The notes beneath the pieces are model-generated. The model had not been told where the DNA came from. It saw only the letters and a program-made list of their open reading frames with translations, and did not search any database. A stretch of 64,000 nt of DNA from Parvularculaceae bacterium (lineage in GTDB: Bacteria; Pseudomonadota; Alphaproteobacteria; Caulobacterales; Parvularculaceae), in NCBI GenBank assembly GCA_028280115.1, contig JANQMJ010000021.1, forward strand, positions 85,893 to 149,892. The letters run 5' to 3'. The position numbers and the translations under genes were made by a program. Positions 54,572-61,762 of this stretch are shown here, in pieces (the first letter of the stretch is position 1; the number at the start of each line of letters is the position of its first letter).

Positions 54572-55369
54572 TCAGGCTGCGCGAGCGCGGGTCGCCTGGC
54601 GTTCGGCCGATTCGGCGTCGGTCAGCGCCTTAACCCAGGGATAGCGCACGGCCATTTCATCCGTGTAACCAAGGTTACGCGCCGTTGCGCTGCGCGGACG
54701 CTCTTCCGTTTCTTTGTAGAAGGTCCCGAAAAGCCGATCCCAGAAAAACTCGGCGATGCCGAAATTGCCCGTTTCGTCATGGAAATGATGCGCTAAATGG
54801 CGCTGTTTCATGTCCTTCCAGAATTTCGATTTGGGTTCAAAAGCAAGATGTTCGCCCGCATGCATGAACTCCGTAAAACAGGTCATGATGAGCGTGCCGG
54901 CGATGGCGCACAGCGCCCCCGAAAAACCGCCGATCAGCCATCCTAACGGACCCGAAACGACCAAAATCGTCGGCAAAGTCGTATGCAGGCCGCCAAAAAG
55001 CACGGATAAATCGTTGGGGTAGCGGTGGTGATCGTAATGCACCCGCTTCCACAGGCTGGCGAGATGGGGGGATTTATACATCCACGAGCCGTGCAGAACG
55101 AAACGGTGGATCAGATACCAGGCAAACGGAAACAAGAGCGCGCCGGCCGTCAAGGCCGCTAAAAACAGCCATACCGACGTGGCCGTCGCCACCCCCGCCG
55201 CCAGGCAGACGACGATCAGCGCCGCATAGACCTGAATGGCCGGATAGGTGACATAAGCCCGCACGAGATCCTTAAAATCCATGCGGTTGAGGAGATATTC
55301 CTCAGCCTTCCAGGCCTTGTAACCGACGAAAAGACGCATTCTTGGGTTGTTCCTGCGATTCATTCGCAA
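54572..55369 (-). CDS. fatty-acid hydroxylase / sterol-desaturase superfamily membrane protein
   Basis: Three His boxes: HRFVLH, HYDHH and HLAHHFH. Several TM segments. Divergent from the sphingolipid-type operon. Confidence 0.8.
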   Translation of the reverse strand: MRMNRRNNPRMRLFVGYKAWKAEEYLLNRMDFKDLVRAYVTYPAIQVYAALIVVCLAAGVATATSVWLFLAALTAGALLFPFAWYLIHRFVLHGSWMYKSPHLASLWKRVHYDHHRYPNDLSVLFGGLHTTLPTILVVSGPLGWLIGGFSGALCAIAGTLIMTCFTEFMHAGEHLAFEPKSKFWKDMKQRHLAHHFHDETGNFGIAEFFWDRLFGTFYKETEERPRSATARNLGYTDEMAVRYPWVKALTDAESAERQATRARAA

Positions 55370-55692
55370 CGCATCAAAAGCGATGCTGGCGCGAAACTAA
55401 GCGCCATGGGCCATGACATCAAGCGTCACATTCCAGCGATCATCAAAGGGGCCCGCGATCTGTAACATCCGCCTGCAATTATTGATGCAGCGCGAAACCG
55501 GCGAGGCTTGCTCGTTGACCTAAGGCCTTGTATCGGCTCAAGATCACGCCGCGCGCCTGTTATCGGCAAAGATGAAGGACTTTGCCGCCGCATCGGGCGC
55601 TGAGACGAGGCTTGGGGTGCGTGCGTCTTGGGGGATGGGCGCATGCGCAGGACAGTAGACCGGCTTAAAACCGGTCGAGTGCGGGGGCGTTG

Positions 55693-57480
55693 ATGACCGT
55701 AAATTCTGAGAAAGCAGTGCCGACGCCGACGGAAAATGACGGATTAGCGCCGCGCATCGGCGACTTTGAAACGGTGCCTGAGGCGCTCGATTACGCCGCC
55801 CGGGGCCAGACCGGCTATAACTTTTTCACCCTGCGCGGCGAGGTGGAAGAACGCCTTTCCTACGCAGCGCTGCGCGAACGCGCGCTCGACGTCGCCAACC
55901 GGCTTGCCGCGCGCTTTGAGCGGGGCGATCGCATCGCCATCATCGCTGAAACCAGCCCCGAATTCGTCATCACGTTTTTTGCTTGCCAGTATGCCGGCCT
56001 CGTCCCGGCGCCGATGCCCATGCCGGTCAATCTCGGCGGCAAGGACGGCTATCTCAACCAGATCCGTTTGATGATCGTCGGCGCCAAAGCCGCCGGCGCG
56101 GTTGGCCCGGCTGCATTGCGGGGATTTCTCGAAGAGGCGGCGCAGTCCTTGCCCGGTGTCGCCATCTACGATTTTCACACGCTGTTCGATCTGAAAGGCA
56201 ACGGCGTCGCCGCCAAGCCGTTCGGCCCTGACGAATATTGCTACATTCAGTACTCGTCCGGTTCCACCAGCGCGCCCAAGGGCGTCATCGGCACGCAGCG
56301 TTCCGTCAGCAGCAATTTGAGCGCGATCACGCAGCACGGCATGAATGCGCGACCAGGCGACCGCTGCGCGAGCTGGCTGCCGCTCTATCACGACATGGGG
56401 CTGATCGGCTTTCTTCTTGCGCCATTGGCCGCGCAATTGTCGGTCGATTTTCTGTCTACGTCCGATTTTGTGCGGCGGCCGCTATTGTGGCTGCGCATCA
56501 TTACGGAACACAAAGCCTCGCTAACCTACAGCCCGTCCTTCGGCTACGACCTTGCAGCCAAGCGTTCAGCGCGCGCCGAACAGGGTTCGGTCGACCTTAC
56601 ACATCTGCGCGTCGCCGGCATCGGCGGCGATATGGTGCGGCCCGAAGCGCTCAACGCTTTCGCCGAAGCCTTCGAACCCTTCGGCTTTAATCCCAACGCC
56701 TTTGCGCCAAGCTACGGCATGGCCGAAGCGACGCTGGCGATTTCGTTTCCGACGCTTGGCGAACCGATCACCGTCGACGAGGTCGACATGCGGCACTTTA
56801 CGCGCTCGGGCGTGGCTCAACCCGCCTCCGCGGTGACCTCGCCGGAGCACAAGCGCGGCTTCGTGCTGTGCGGTCGGGCCCTGCCCGATCATGAGATTAA
56901 AGTGCGCGATGAAAAGGGGAACGCCGTTGACGAACGCGTCGTCGGCCGCATCTTCATCAAAGGCCCCAGCCTGACGCCGGGCTATTTCTCCGATCCGGAC
57001 GCATCGGCGGCGATGTATGACGGCGAATGGCTCGACACCGGCGATATGGGATACTTCCTGGACGGACAAATCGTCATCACCGGCCGCGCCAAGGATCTTA
57101 TCATCATCAATGGGCGCAACATCTGGCCGCAAGACATCGAATGGGCGGTTGAAAAGACCGAAGGCGTCAGGAATGGCGGCGTCGCAGCGTTTTCCGTCGA
57201 TGACGGCGGCGGCGAGCGCATCGTCGTTGTTGTCGAGCGGCGCGGCATGAGCCAAGACGCGTTGGCGGCGCTTAAACGCGAGATCGCGTCGGTCATCCAG
57301 AACGCCGTCGGCGCGCCGGCCGAAGTCGTGCTTGCGCGGCCGCACTCCATGGTGATGACGTCGTCCGGCAAGCTCTCGCGCGCCAAAGTCAAACAGAAAT
57401 ATCTCGACGGCGCATTCACCGAAGACCGACCCGAACCGGCGGTCGCCGCGCCCAGAGCGCTCGCCGATTCCCGAGTCTAA
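55693..57480 (+). CDS. fatty acyl-AMP ligase / acyl-ACP synthetase
   Basis: AMP-binding motif YIQYSSGSTSAPKGV, GYxxD...TGD, and the C-terminal SSGKLSR lysine motif. Followed by the reductase-ACP-Spt genes. Confidence 0.85.
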   Translation: MTVNSEKAVPTPTENDGLAPRIGDFETVPEALDYAARGQTGYNFFTLRGEVEERLSYAALRERALDVANRLAARFERGDRIAIIAETSPEFVITFFACQYAGLVPAPMPMPVNLGGKDGYLNQIRLMIVGAKAAGAVGPAALRGFLEEAAQSLPGVAIYDFHTLFDLKGNGVAAKPFGPDEYCYIQYSSGSTSAPKGVIGTQRSVSSNLSAITQHGMNARPGDRCASWLPLYHDMGLIGFLLAPLAAQLSVDFLSTSDFVRRPLLWLRIITEHKASLTYSPSFGYDLAAKRSARAEQGSVDLTHLRVAGIGGDMVRPEALNAFAEAFEPFGFNPNAFAPSYGMAEATLAISFPTLGEPITVDEVDMRHFTRSGVAQPASAVTSPEHKRGFVLCGRALPDHEIKVRDEKGNAVDERVVGRIFIKGPSLTPGYFSDPDASAAMYDGEWLDTGDMGYFLDGQIVITGRAKDLIIINGRNIWPQDIEWAVEKTEGVRNGGVAAFSVDDGGGERIVVVVERRGMSQDALAALKREIASVIQNAVGAPAEVVLARPHSMVMTSSGKLSRAKVKQKYLDGAFTEDRPEPAVAAPRALADSRV

Positions 57481-60530: not shown

Positions 60531-60616
60531 GATCGGGCGTTGGGGCGTGCGCCGTTTCTTTTTGGCGCATTTGCGCCTATGCCGTTTCAAGATGAAACAC
60601 GCCGCAAAGCCCGCCC

Positions 60617-61762
60617 ATGATTCAATCGGCCCTTGAAATACGTCCGGTCGAAACCGCTCGCGACCGCACGACATTTATTCGCCTTCCCAGCCAGCTTTAC
60701 GCCGACGATCCGAATTACATCGCGCCCCTGGAATTCGAACTGGCCGCACGGCTTGATGCGGCGAAAAATCCCGAGCTGAAATCTTCTCCCCACCAATTGT
60801 GGATCGCCTACCGGAATGGCCAGCCCGTGGGCCGCATCGCCGCGATCGTCAACCAGTCCCACCAGGCGCTTTATCAAGACGAAGCGGGCCACTTCGGCTT
60901 TATCGAGGGCGAAAACGACGCCGAACTCTTCGGCCTGCTGACCGAAACGGCGGCGGGATGGTTGCGCGAGCGCGGCATGAAAAAGATCGCCGGGCCGTTC
61001 AATTTTTCCGTCAACGAGGAGTGCGGCCTGCTTGTCGACGGGTTCGATACGCCGCCTTATTTCATGATGCCCCATGGACGGCCTTATCACGCCGAGCGCC
61101 TTGAGGCCCTCGGCTTTGAAAAGGCGCGAGACATGTACGCTCTGCGCTACGCGATCAAGCGTGACTTCATTCCCGAAAAGCGCATGCGGTTCGTCGAAAA
61201 GGCGCTTTCACGCCCGAACATTACGATTCGAAATCTCAACACCAAGGACTTCCTCGGCGATATCCGGACGATTATCGATATTTACAACGACGCGTGGTCC
61301 GAAAATTGGGGATTTGTTCCGTTTACGGAAGAGCATGTTCGGCATATGGCGCGCGAGCTGCGGCCGATTATCGAAACGCACAACGTGGTCATCTGCTATC
61401 TCGACGGCGAACCGGTCGCTTTCGGCCTTGTCCTGCCGAACATCAACGAGGCGATCCGCGACTTCGGCGGCAAACTCCTGCCCTTTAACTGGGCCAAGCT
61501 GCTCTGGCGGCTCAAGGTCAAGGGCGTCAGCCAGGCGCGCATGCCCTTGATGGGCGTGCGCAAAAAGCTGCACGGCAAGCCCGTGGGCGCGGCGTTCGCG
61601 TATAAGGTTATCGAACTGGTCAACTCGGCCAACCTTGATCGCGGCGTTGTTGACGCCGAGTTGTCCTGGATTCTTGAAGATAATGAAGCGATGCTGACCA
61701 TGCTGCTCGATATGAGCGGCGAAATCTACAAGACCTATCGGATCTACGAAAAGCCGCTTTAG
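60617..61762 (+). CDS. GNAT-like acyltransferase, candidate bacterial ceramide synthase (bCerS-like) by context
   Basis: 381 aa. The N-terminus IRPVETARDRTTFIRLPSQLYADDPNYIAPL is typical of a widespread family of about 380-aa N-acyltransferases. The CDS itself is confident; the function is inferred from its position next to the spt cluster. Confidence 0.55.
   Translation: MIQSALEIRPVETARDRTTFIRLPSQLYADDPNYIAPLEFELAARLDAAKNPELKSSPHQLWIAYRNGQPVGRIAAIVNQSHQALYQDEAGHFGFIEGENDAELFGLLTETAAGWLRERGMKKIAGPFNFSVNEECGLLVDGFDTPPYFMMPHGRPYHAERLEALGFEKARDMYALRYAIKRDFIPEKRMRFVEKALSRPNITIRNLNTKDFLGDIRTIIDIYNDAWSENWGFVPFTEEHVRHMARELRPIIETHNVVICYLDGEPVAFGLVLPNINEAIRDFGGKLLPFNWAKLLWRLKVKGVSQARMPLMGVRKKLHGKPVGAAFAYKVIELVNSANLDRGVVDAELSWILEDNEAMLTMLLDMSGEIYKTYRIYEKPL

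Follow-up and report, generated by a model that had tools for sequence, protein, structure and literature searches.

What does a run of seven genes in the metagenome-assembled genome of a marine, Parvularculaceae-like alphaproteobacterium make, and what do the two members of the run that lie outside the described ceramide pathway contribute? The genes occupy positions 54572-61762 of a 64-kb stretch of contig JANQMJ010000021.1, hereafter called the window. We propose that the region is a compact, self-contained module for hydroxylated ceramide, a reading to which we give a probability of roughly 0.75 on the basis of sequence comparison and analogy with studied systems. Five of the genes (aasR, cerR, acpR, spt, and bcerS) very probably encode a ceramide pathway. 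The two others, a hydroxylase gene that we call HYD and a DUF2141 gene, are linked to bcerS in many bacteria and are probably undescribed parts of bacterial sphingolipid making. The features of the region are the following.

54572-55339, minus strand: HYD, a PF04116 hydroxylase and candidate ceramide hydroxylase (255 aa in the public gene call; a longer open reading frame (ORF) runs to 55369).
55340-55692, no strand: divergent HYD/aasR intergenic region with two conserved noncoding blocks.
55693-57480 (alternative start 55690), plus strand: aasR, a fatty acyl-AMP ligase (FAAL)-type acyl-ACP synthetase (ACP, acyl carrier protein); contains YIQYSSGSTSAPKGV.
57483-58409, plus strand: cerR, an NAD(P)-dependent reductase of the epimerase/short-chain dehydrogenase/reductase (SDR) family; contains TGGTGFVG and YARSK.
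58444-58707, plus strand: acpR, a dedicated ACP of 87 aa; contains DSVSVLD.
58712-59914, plus strand: spt, gene for a predicted serine palmitoyltransferase, a pyridoxal phosphate-dependent alpha-oxoamine synthase (AOS); contains GTFSKSLASIGG.
60027-60530 (alternative start 60009), plus strand: gene for a DUF2141 protein of 167 aa (PF09912).
60617-61762, plus strand: bcerS, a predicted tandem-GNAT N-acyltransferase of 381 aa, YghO/CC_1154 family.
After 61762, minus strand: AMP nucleosidase gene, convergent with bcerS.

All seven ORFs that an earlier note on this DNA had proposed are found at its coordinates in the ORF list, together with every motif it quoted. The tight packing that it described for four same-strand genes corresponds to intergenic gaps of 2, 34, and 4 nt between aasR, cerR, acpR, and spt, and its view of the source as a non-sphingomonad alphaproteobacterium agrees with the closest relatives of the window, which are Hyphococcus, Marinicaulis, Amphiplicatus, and other Parvularculaceae. 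Pfam recognizes FA_hydroxylase (75 bits), AMP-binding (190 bits), Epimerase (93 bits), PP-binding (39 bits), Aminotran_1_2 (174 bits), and DUF2141 (PF09912, 84.3 bits against a gathering threshold of 24.4) in the corresponding products. NCBIfam has no family for the hydroxylase, the DUF2141 protein, or bCerS.

The experimentally studied locus of Escherichia coli BL21(DE3) served as the reference set for pairwise BLASTP comparisons, and orthology with Caulobacter was tested by way of the E. coli proteins. The locus yghO-aasR-epi(cerR)-acpR-spt of E. coli BL21(DE3)/B (ECD_02850-02854; PMC9386255) holds full-length homologues of all five core proteins, at 30-49% identity. AasR is 43% identical to its E. 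coli counterpart over 551 aa (E 1e-157) and passes NCBIfam model NF006624 with 734 bits against a cut-off of 600; the biochemical trait of AasR is selective acylation of the cognate AcpR and not of CoA or AcpP (PMC9386255). CerR shows 30% full-length identity to ECD_02852 (E 2e-41) and carries the extended-SDR/epimerase motifs TGxxGxxG and YxxxK. AcpR is 35% identical to E. coli AcpR, with the serine of DSVSV aligning to the phosphopantetheine serine region. The two loci share the gene order aasR-cerR-acpR-spt, and the earlier assignment of the ligase, the reductase, and the carrier to this pathway is borne out by these comparisons. Both loci also include bcerS, although the E. coli gene (yghO) is divergent and upstream of aasR whereas that of the window lies downstream of spt.

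Whether the AOS groups with Spt or with BioF, Kbl, or HemA, a question on which the earlier note had taken the side of Spt, was decided by NCBIfam equivalog cut-offs and by the ranking of PDB matches, and the two agree on Spt. The protein is 49% identical to E. coli BL21 Spt and passes the equivalog model NF047599 (580.6 bits, cut-off 500), but it falls below the cut-offs of the bioF (321 versus 426 bits), Kbl (301 versus 460 bits), and 5-aminolevulinate synthase (ALAS, HemA; 233 versus 339 bits) models; the alphaproteobacterial model NF047603 gives 466 bits, below its cut-off of 670. Among PDB entries, Sphingomonas serine palmitoyltransferase (SPT; 2jg2) scores 404 bits, ahead of Kbl (213), cysteate acyltransferase (197), BioF (162), ALAS (157), and CqsA (133). 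The Sphingomonas SPT residues H159, D231, H234, K265, and R390 are conserved (five of six), and residue 357 is Ile where the Sphingomonas paucimobilis enzyme has Arg378, a serine-carboxylate contact. Since the Spt of E. coli B, whose function is proven, carries Leu there (PMC9386255), this residue does not define the acyl-ACP-using enzymes and the substitution does not count against the assignment; loss of the Arg378 equivalent may mark an acyl-ACP-using subgroup of Spt.

These same data bear on the proposal that the FAAL-ACP-oxoamine synthase-reductase cassette makes something other than a sphingolipid, for which the candidates would be a cysteate-derived sulfonolipid, an amino-lipid (1-deoxy or derived from glycine), and an alpha-hydroxyketone signal. 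Such products are indeed made by related oxoamine synthases. The presence of cysteate acyltransferase and CqsA among the PDB matches and the replacement of Arg378 are what it can draw on. Nevertheless, we consider it extremely unlikely, given that the Spt equivalog model is passed while all other NCBIfam AOS models stay below cut-off, that an Spt of proven function shares the missing arginine, and that the full five-gene ceramide set, bCerS included, is present.

The last member of that set is the 381-aa protein, for which similarity to the bacterial ceramide synthase bCerS had been predicted and is found. Of its 381 residues, 376 align with E. coli BL21 YghO at 42% identity (E 4e-105), and YghO is given as the Caulobacter CC_1154/bCerS orthologue in PMC9386255. 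Identity to the protein of a Roseomonas cluster described below is 44%. Pfam returns GNAT matches below threshold only (E 8e-4 and 3e-3). By using an AlphaFold2 (AF2) model (predicted local distance difference test (pLDDT) score 81) as a Foldseek query, we retrieved tandem-GNAT enzymes at E 1e-13 to 1e-12 and TM-scores of 0.63-0.73, with glucosamine N-acetyltransferase, the clavulanate tandem GNAT, and MshD among the fold matches. Sequence and model thus support the prediction of a tandem-GNAT ceramide synthase that would N-acylate a sphingoid base. Residues 130-152, FSVNEECGLLVDGFDTPPYFMMPHG, form the most conserved stretch of the family, with many invariant residues, and are also the sole internal segment modelled at very low confidence (pLDDT about 34); they may form a loop that moves at the active site or one that binds the membrane or a lipid. 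Homologues of bCerS are misnamed in public records, as 'dATP pyrophosphohydrolase' in Roseomonas and as 'DNA-binding protein' or 'hypothetical' elsewhere.

To place the locus among its relatives, one genome per species was scanned with an Spt alignment as query, which gave 80 loci at 51-84% Spt identity, and all window proteins were mapped onto them; 47 of the 80 loci contain bcerS. The order aasR-cerR-acpR-spt is kept in nearly all of these loci, with cerR at a syntenic position between aasR and acpR. An acp gene directly precedes spt (in the window, 4 nt lie between the end of acpR, 58707, and the start of spt, 58712) in every locus but one, in which spt stands at the contig start, and this pairing has been reported for all Rhodobacteria (PMC9386255). 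The five-gene clustering had been stated for Caulobacter and E. coli BL21 only (PMC9386255); contrary to that statement, clustering of ceramide genes is common. Spt/bCerS/CerR sets have been catalogued across many phyla (PMC11334938, PMC11324152), and the core of the window adds one more member to them.

The two remaining genes are not part of that set. The earlier note had placed the hydroxylase and the DUF2141 gene outside the described core pathway, and our literature search agrees: it found no work tying a PF04116 hydroxylase to bCerS-type clusters and no sphingolipid connection for DUF2141, so that the linkage of either gene to bcerS appears to be undescribed. Beside spt, the E. coli locus carries LptF/G paralogues and genes of the lipopolysaccharide (LPS) type, but it includes neither a PF04116 hydroxylase nor DUF2141. 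The Caulobacter crescentus cluster CC_1152-CC_1168 (PMC11324152, PMC11087976) has the same five ceramide genes as the window, and the mechanism is presumed by analogy to be the same, but no DUF2141 is described for it, and its acyl hydroxylase is the unlinked DesA-type CC_0202, whereas that of the window is a linked PF04116 enzyme.

As the earlier note had it, HYD is transcribed divergently from the operon; in place of the three histidine boxes it had counted, however, there are four conserved clusters, HRFVLH, HYDHH, HAGEH, and HLAHH. The corresponding motifs HR..LH, H.DHH, H...H, and HLAHH, together with a C-terminal NLGY..PWV, are kept in 22 homologues. Hydrophobic stretches at residues 28-78 and 111-159 would fit four membrane helices. 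The sole match of HYD to a solved structure is Scs7, the yeast ceramide very long-chain fatty acid 2-hydroxylase (E 3e-7), and the alignment spans all of the histidine motifs, pairing HRFVLH with HRFLFH, HYDHH with HGCHH, HAGEH with HFFLH(H), and HLAHH with HLEHH. HYD shares with Scs7p/FA2H a membrane di-iron domain with the pattern HX4H/HX2HH/HX3H/HX2HH, four hydrophobic helices, and a sphingolipid context, but the similarity is remote, and Pfam finds FA_hydroxylase alone in the 255 residues. Because the cytochrome b5 domain is missing, HYD would at best resemble an FA2H-type hydroxylase in its action and is not a canonical member of the FA2H/Scs7 group.

Gene context is what ties this enzyme to ceramide. 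Nine genomes of the Parvularculaceae type with all seven genes, Hyphococcus and Marinicaulis among them, show the order HYD(-) / aasR cerR acpR spt DUF2141 bcerS / AMP nucleosidase(-), with protein identities of 42-93%, and since the same order recurs in these related genomes, the arrangement is not due to chance. Within this Parvularculaceae group, HYD is divergent from aasR. In 6 distant alphaproteobacterial loci (44-51% identity), it lies directly upstream of bcerS in the same orientation, with gaps of 18-72 nt, and one of these loci reads DUF2141-HYD-bcerS. On plasmid p1-AD2 of Roseomonas mucosa (NZ_CP025188.1; cluster at about 65-78 kb, L087:3698-16704), a 'sterol desaturase' that is the HYD homologue lies directly upstream of bcerS and overlaps it by 4 nt. 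Three separate arrangements, therefore, hold HYD beside ceramide genes: divergent from aasR, upstream of bcerS, and overlapping with bcerS. On an ENA metagenome contig, moreover, a 50%-identical HYD immediately precedes a gene that we take for bcerS, whose 387-aa product has no Pfam family, and faces an ACP-Spt pair in convergent orientation. The subfamily is narrow, with 33 representatives at E<=1e-30 among 1.84 billion representative proteins.

In one case, the two proteins are encoded by a single reading frame. P0300 (L093:10001-11893, on a 3.79-Mb contig of JGI metagenome 3300059094) is a 630-aa ORF that has HYD as its N-terminal part (45% identical to the window protein) followed by a complete bCerS (44%). 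This fusion is suggestive of a coupling between HYD and bCerS. An ACP gene and a ketoacyl synthase gene come after the fusion ORF.

From the motifs and the linkage taken together, we think it likely that HYD acts on ceramide or its precursors, and we lean slightly toward acyl C2-hydroxylation as its action, with hydroxylation at C4 of the base or desaturation as alternatives. Sur2/SBH-type C4-hydroxylases belong to the same Pfam superfamily as HYD, and the JGI name for its homologues is 'sterol desaturase/sphingolipid hydroxylase'. HYD could accordingly be imagined to have the long-chain base, and not C2 of the N-acyl chain, as its target; it would then be a desaturase or a C4-hydroxylase like Sur2 that yields phytoceramide. 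The Scs7 match does not discriminate here since the PDB holds no Sur2 structure. We regard a base-acting enzyme as possible but unlikely. Its first histidine motif has the HX4H form of Scs7 (HRFVLH versus HRFLFH), the C-terminal block HLxHH...FG[IV]...FWD..FGT aligns with Scs7, and the fusion and tight coupling to an N-acyltransferase are suggestive of the acyl-transfer step.

The DUF2141 protein is distributed differently. By a DUF2141 hidden Markov model, 34 of the 80 loci have a single copy each, which in every case shares the strand of spt. In 25 of the 47 loci with bcerS, the gene immediately precedes bcerS in the same orientation, at a distance of 43-177 nt. Eleven of these 25 are of the Parvularculaceae type, with DUF2141 between spt and bcerS; the other 14, from Hellea, Litorimonas, Robiginitomaculum, Algimonas, or Maricaulaceae, have it between a divergent LptF2 gene and bcerS. 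Five Kiloniellaceae/Pelagibius loci carry DUF2141 as well, with bcerS about 3.6 kb away on the opposite strand in four of them; in the Kiloniellaceae, the gene is divergent from LptF2. It is also found within the Roseomonas sphingolipid cluster. We considered HYD and DUF2141 as an obligate pair and rejected this idea, as most loci hold one without the other. In the published maps of two other organisms (PMC11324152, S2 tables), a gene between LptF2/G2 and bcerS has no assigned Caulobacter orthologue: HNE_1585 in Hyphomonas neptunium and Swit_3907 in Sphingomonas wittichii; this position is exactly that of DUF2141 in the Hellea-type loci.

An AF2 model of the protein (pLDDT 86) consists of a hydrophobic N-terminal helix ending AQA/KK followed by a beta-sandwich. 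The sphingolipid-linked subgroup has two conserved cysteines, and because of these and the signal-peptide-like N-terminus, a periplasmic location fits. A block, YHD-x-[DN]-G-[DN]-x-K-[FL]-D ... G-x-P-x-E-x-[YF]-G-[FL]-S-x-N-P, is family-wide, and an acidic/amide loop, D-x-[DN]-x-[DN]-(G)-x-x-D, is common to the DUF2141 proteins of the window (residues 114-122) and of loci L029, L035, L087, and L089-L092. We take this loop to resemble the calcium-binding loops of extracellular beta-sandwich or FG-GAP-type domains. A profile search of PDB sequences gave spurious matches to hepatocyte growth factor kringles only. The possibility that DUF2141 is an LptC analogue was discarded, because LptC/LptA-like folds are not among the top Foldseek matches and the idea has no structural support. 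We see an even chance that DUF2141 assists ceramide handling from the periplasm; binding or escort of the lipid as its specific task is a more tentative suggestion and one that we would not favor.

DUF2141 also occurs next to carotenoid genes. In Sphingomonadales carotenoid loci, crtG is co-located with a DUF2141 gene (PMC5989583). On a Gluconobacter thailandicus plasmid (L090:1065-7619), DUF2141 lies inside an operon of crtI-crtI-acyltransferase-glycosyltransferase family 2 (GT2)-aldehyde dehydrogenase, and on a Ralstonia megaplasmid (L091:5770-7793) it adjoins a carotenoid oxygenase gene. The Gluconobacter operon looks like a cluster for a C30 carotenoid glycoside ester. A Qipengyuania citrea plasmid (L089:5860-8278) has DUF2141 convergent with a hypothetical gene and a DAG-kinase-family (diacylglycerol kinase) gene, away from any spt on the plasmid; these neighbors look like CC_1161 and ceramide kinase. 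The common denominator of the DUF2141 settings is, as far as their genes predict, clusters making very hydrophobic envelope lipids.

It follows that HYD and DUF2141 could be read as a carotenoid pair, a CrtG-like 2,2'-beta-ionone hydroxylase with its usual DUF2141 neighbor, that merely flanks a ceramide operon. CrtG is also of the PF04116 superfamily and is characteristically encoded beside DUF2141 in Sphingomonadales (PMC5989583), so that the window resembles those loci in having such a hydroxylase and DUF2141 in the neighborhood of a hydrophobic envelope lipid; the Gluconobacter and Ralstonia plasmids point the same way, and the Hyphococcus names flavus, luteus, and aureus imply a yellow pigment. 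Unlike in the crtG-DUF2141 pair, however, the two genes of the window are 4.7 kb apart, on opposite strands, and have ceramide genes as neighbors. There are no crt genes in the 64-kb window, and gene context is what sets HYD apart from CrtG. What weakens this explanation is that HYD is found beside bcerS in the rearranged clusters of distant taxa, overlapping in Roseomonas and fused once, and that DUF2141 lies beside bcerS without any hydroxylase in the 14 Hellea-type loci. We, therefore, judge a carotenoid pair to be highly unlikely and retain ceramide as the lipid on which the two proteins would act.

Several points weigh against the proposal of a hydroxylated-ceramide module with these two additional proteins. 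The match to Scs7 is modest (E 3e-7), and because Scs7 is the only PF04116 member in the PDB, it cannot separate acyl C2-hydroxylation from base C4-hydroxylation or desaturation. The HYD-bCerS fusion is one sequence from one metagenome contig, for which a frameshift artefact is possible. Some HYD homologues have no spt cluster around them: a 47%-identical one on a Sphingomonas plasmid and others of 41-46% identity, whose settings are different lipid clusters or unrelated genes; P0302 is in a nonribosomal peptide synthetase/FabH context, and the contigs of P0309 and P0305 are too short to show gene context. Because such distant representatives sit elsewhere, the link between HYD and bcerS fades below about 45% identity. 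Other bacteria are known to use other enzymes: in Caulobacter, the enzyme that hydroxylates the amide-linked acyl chain is of the unrelated DesA type (PMC11324152), and the alpha-hydroxylase of Sphingomonas is a P450 (PMC10002949). As far as the account of Ring et al. 2009 cited in PMC10002949 goes, myxobacteria are the only known source of PF04116-type FA2H-like hydroxylases with a sphingolipid connection, and these enzymes belong to another Spt lineage, that of the delta-proteobacteria/Bacteroidetes type. With regard to DUF2141, no PDB match of Foldseek reached E<=1e-3, the weaker ones being generic beta-sandwiches of the CBM20, pilotin, and fimbrial kinds, and since carotenoid clusters carry the gene as well, its role is not specific to sphingolipids. 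The locus counts are not phylogenetically independent, and a literature search yielded no usable record of chemotaxonomic lipids for Hyphococcus, Marinicaulis, and Amphiplicatus; a search for Roseomonas ceramide structures gave reviews only.

The steps that we envisage combine what is known from Caulobacter and E. coli B (steps one to four; PMC9386255, PMC11087976), transferred here by homology, with two steps that we infer from gene linkage. AasR would adenylate a free fatty acid and load it onto the dedicated carrier AcpR. Spt would then join acyl-AcpR and L-serine to give 3-oxosphinganine, which bCerS would N-acylate at the cytoplasmic face of the inner membrane. CerR would reduce the 3-keto group, of 3-keto-ceramide or of 3-ketosphinganine, possibly in the periplasm; the order of N-acylation and keto reduction is unsettled in the literature. 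HYD, working with bCerS, would hydroxylate the ceramide, most likely at C2 of the N-acyl chain as in Scs7/FA2H, or else at C4 of the long-chain base. Finally, the secreted DUF2141 beta-sandwich would handle the hydrophobic product in the periplasm, for example, by binding it or passing it toward the outer membrane. Genes for head groups and Lpt2-type export would lie outside the module in this lineage. A bolder version, which we put forward as a doubtful conjecture, has DUF2141 as a periplasmic binder or chaperone that moves both ceramides and carotenoids from the inner to the outer membrane, together with a HYD-bCerS complex that channels hydroxy-ceramide in a single step, making the alphaproteobacterial module one of seven genes instead of five.

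That the window has no head-group genes had been noted before, and both tblastn and Pfam scans of the remaining ORFs agree with this. The tblastn queries came from a Hellea locus with a Caulobacter-like set beside spt, comprising a CC_1161-like protein, a DAG-kinase-type ceramide kinase, LptG2/LptF2, a nucleoside triphosphate (NTP) transferase, a CDP-alcohol transferase, and a HAD protein. None of them had a match anywhere in the 64 kb, and loci L007-L020, which are of the Parvularculaceae type, gave none either, whereas they were found in most other loci, and Pfam annotation of 30 further large window ORFs revealed housekeeping genes only. Relative to Caulobacter, the window lacks homologues of the ceramide kinase, CC_1161, CC_1159, CC_1158, CC_1153/1152, LptC2/F2/G2, and the flippase. 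Judged by its gene content, the Parvularculaceae-type lineage has a stripped-down "ceramide only" module.

The Roseomonas mucosa p1-AD2 cluster also encodes an ACP, and its Spt (50%), DUF2141 (28%), HYD (47%), and bCerS (44%) match proteins of the window, but the cluster is plasmid-borne, large, and Caulobacter-type, with a DAG-kinase-family gene, a CDP-alcohol transferase, a metallophosphoesterase, a HIT protein, two copies of LptF/G, an NTP transferase, and glycosyltransferases in addition. R. mucosa is a skin commensal and carries this full sphingolipid cluster on a plasmid.

Bacterial sphingolipids stabilize the outer membrane, affect polymyxin sensitivity, and act in host interactions, as exemplified by R. 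mucosa, which is in use as a skin therapeutic. Five ceramide genes and the Caulobacter head-group genes were already known. To these, the locus and its relatives would add one candidate each for ceramide hydroxylation and for crossing of the periplasm, two steps at issue in most Alpha-, Beta-, and Gammaproteobacteria, and they provide a first functional context for DUF2141. Cultured organisms with relevant loci are Hyphococcus sp. DH-69 (NZ_CP157210), which has the same seven genes, R. mucosa, Litorimonas, and Pelagibius marinus.

The region between HYD and aasR was aligned by MAFFT with the same region of 9 related loci, and two blocks are kept in 6-7 genomes. Block 1 (55461-55487) reads TGTAACA...GCAAT.ATTGAT, and block 2 (55507-55545) reads CTTGCnnGTTGACC...GCTCAAGAT, also written TTGACC...GCTCAAGAT. 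By its sequence, block 2 resembles an alphaproteobacterial promoter, from which we infer a promoter or operator role, and the two blocks may be a shared regulatory site for the divergent genes. Generic sigma-70 and terminator scans gave nothing above chance level, and an Rfam scan of the window returned 0 hits, with no tRNA either.

Elsewhere in the window, the minus-strand gene at 39885-41075 encodes a 396-aa AurF-like/DUF455-like di-iron oxygenase and lies among housekeeping genes, beside a miaB-like radical-SAM gene. Two further minus-strand ORFs have a coding-like GC content at third codon positions but no Pfam or NCBIfam family: 50225-50833 (202 aa), which has a signal-peptide-like start, and 47485-48944 (about 337-402 aa). 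In locus L003, a DUF6538/phage-integrase-type gene (L003:15509-16927) is found about 4.4 kb past bcerS, or about 4.1-5.5 kb beyond the 3' end of the window, and is preceded by the conserved block AMP nucleosidase-Trm112-LON-thioredoxin.

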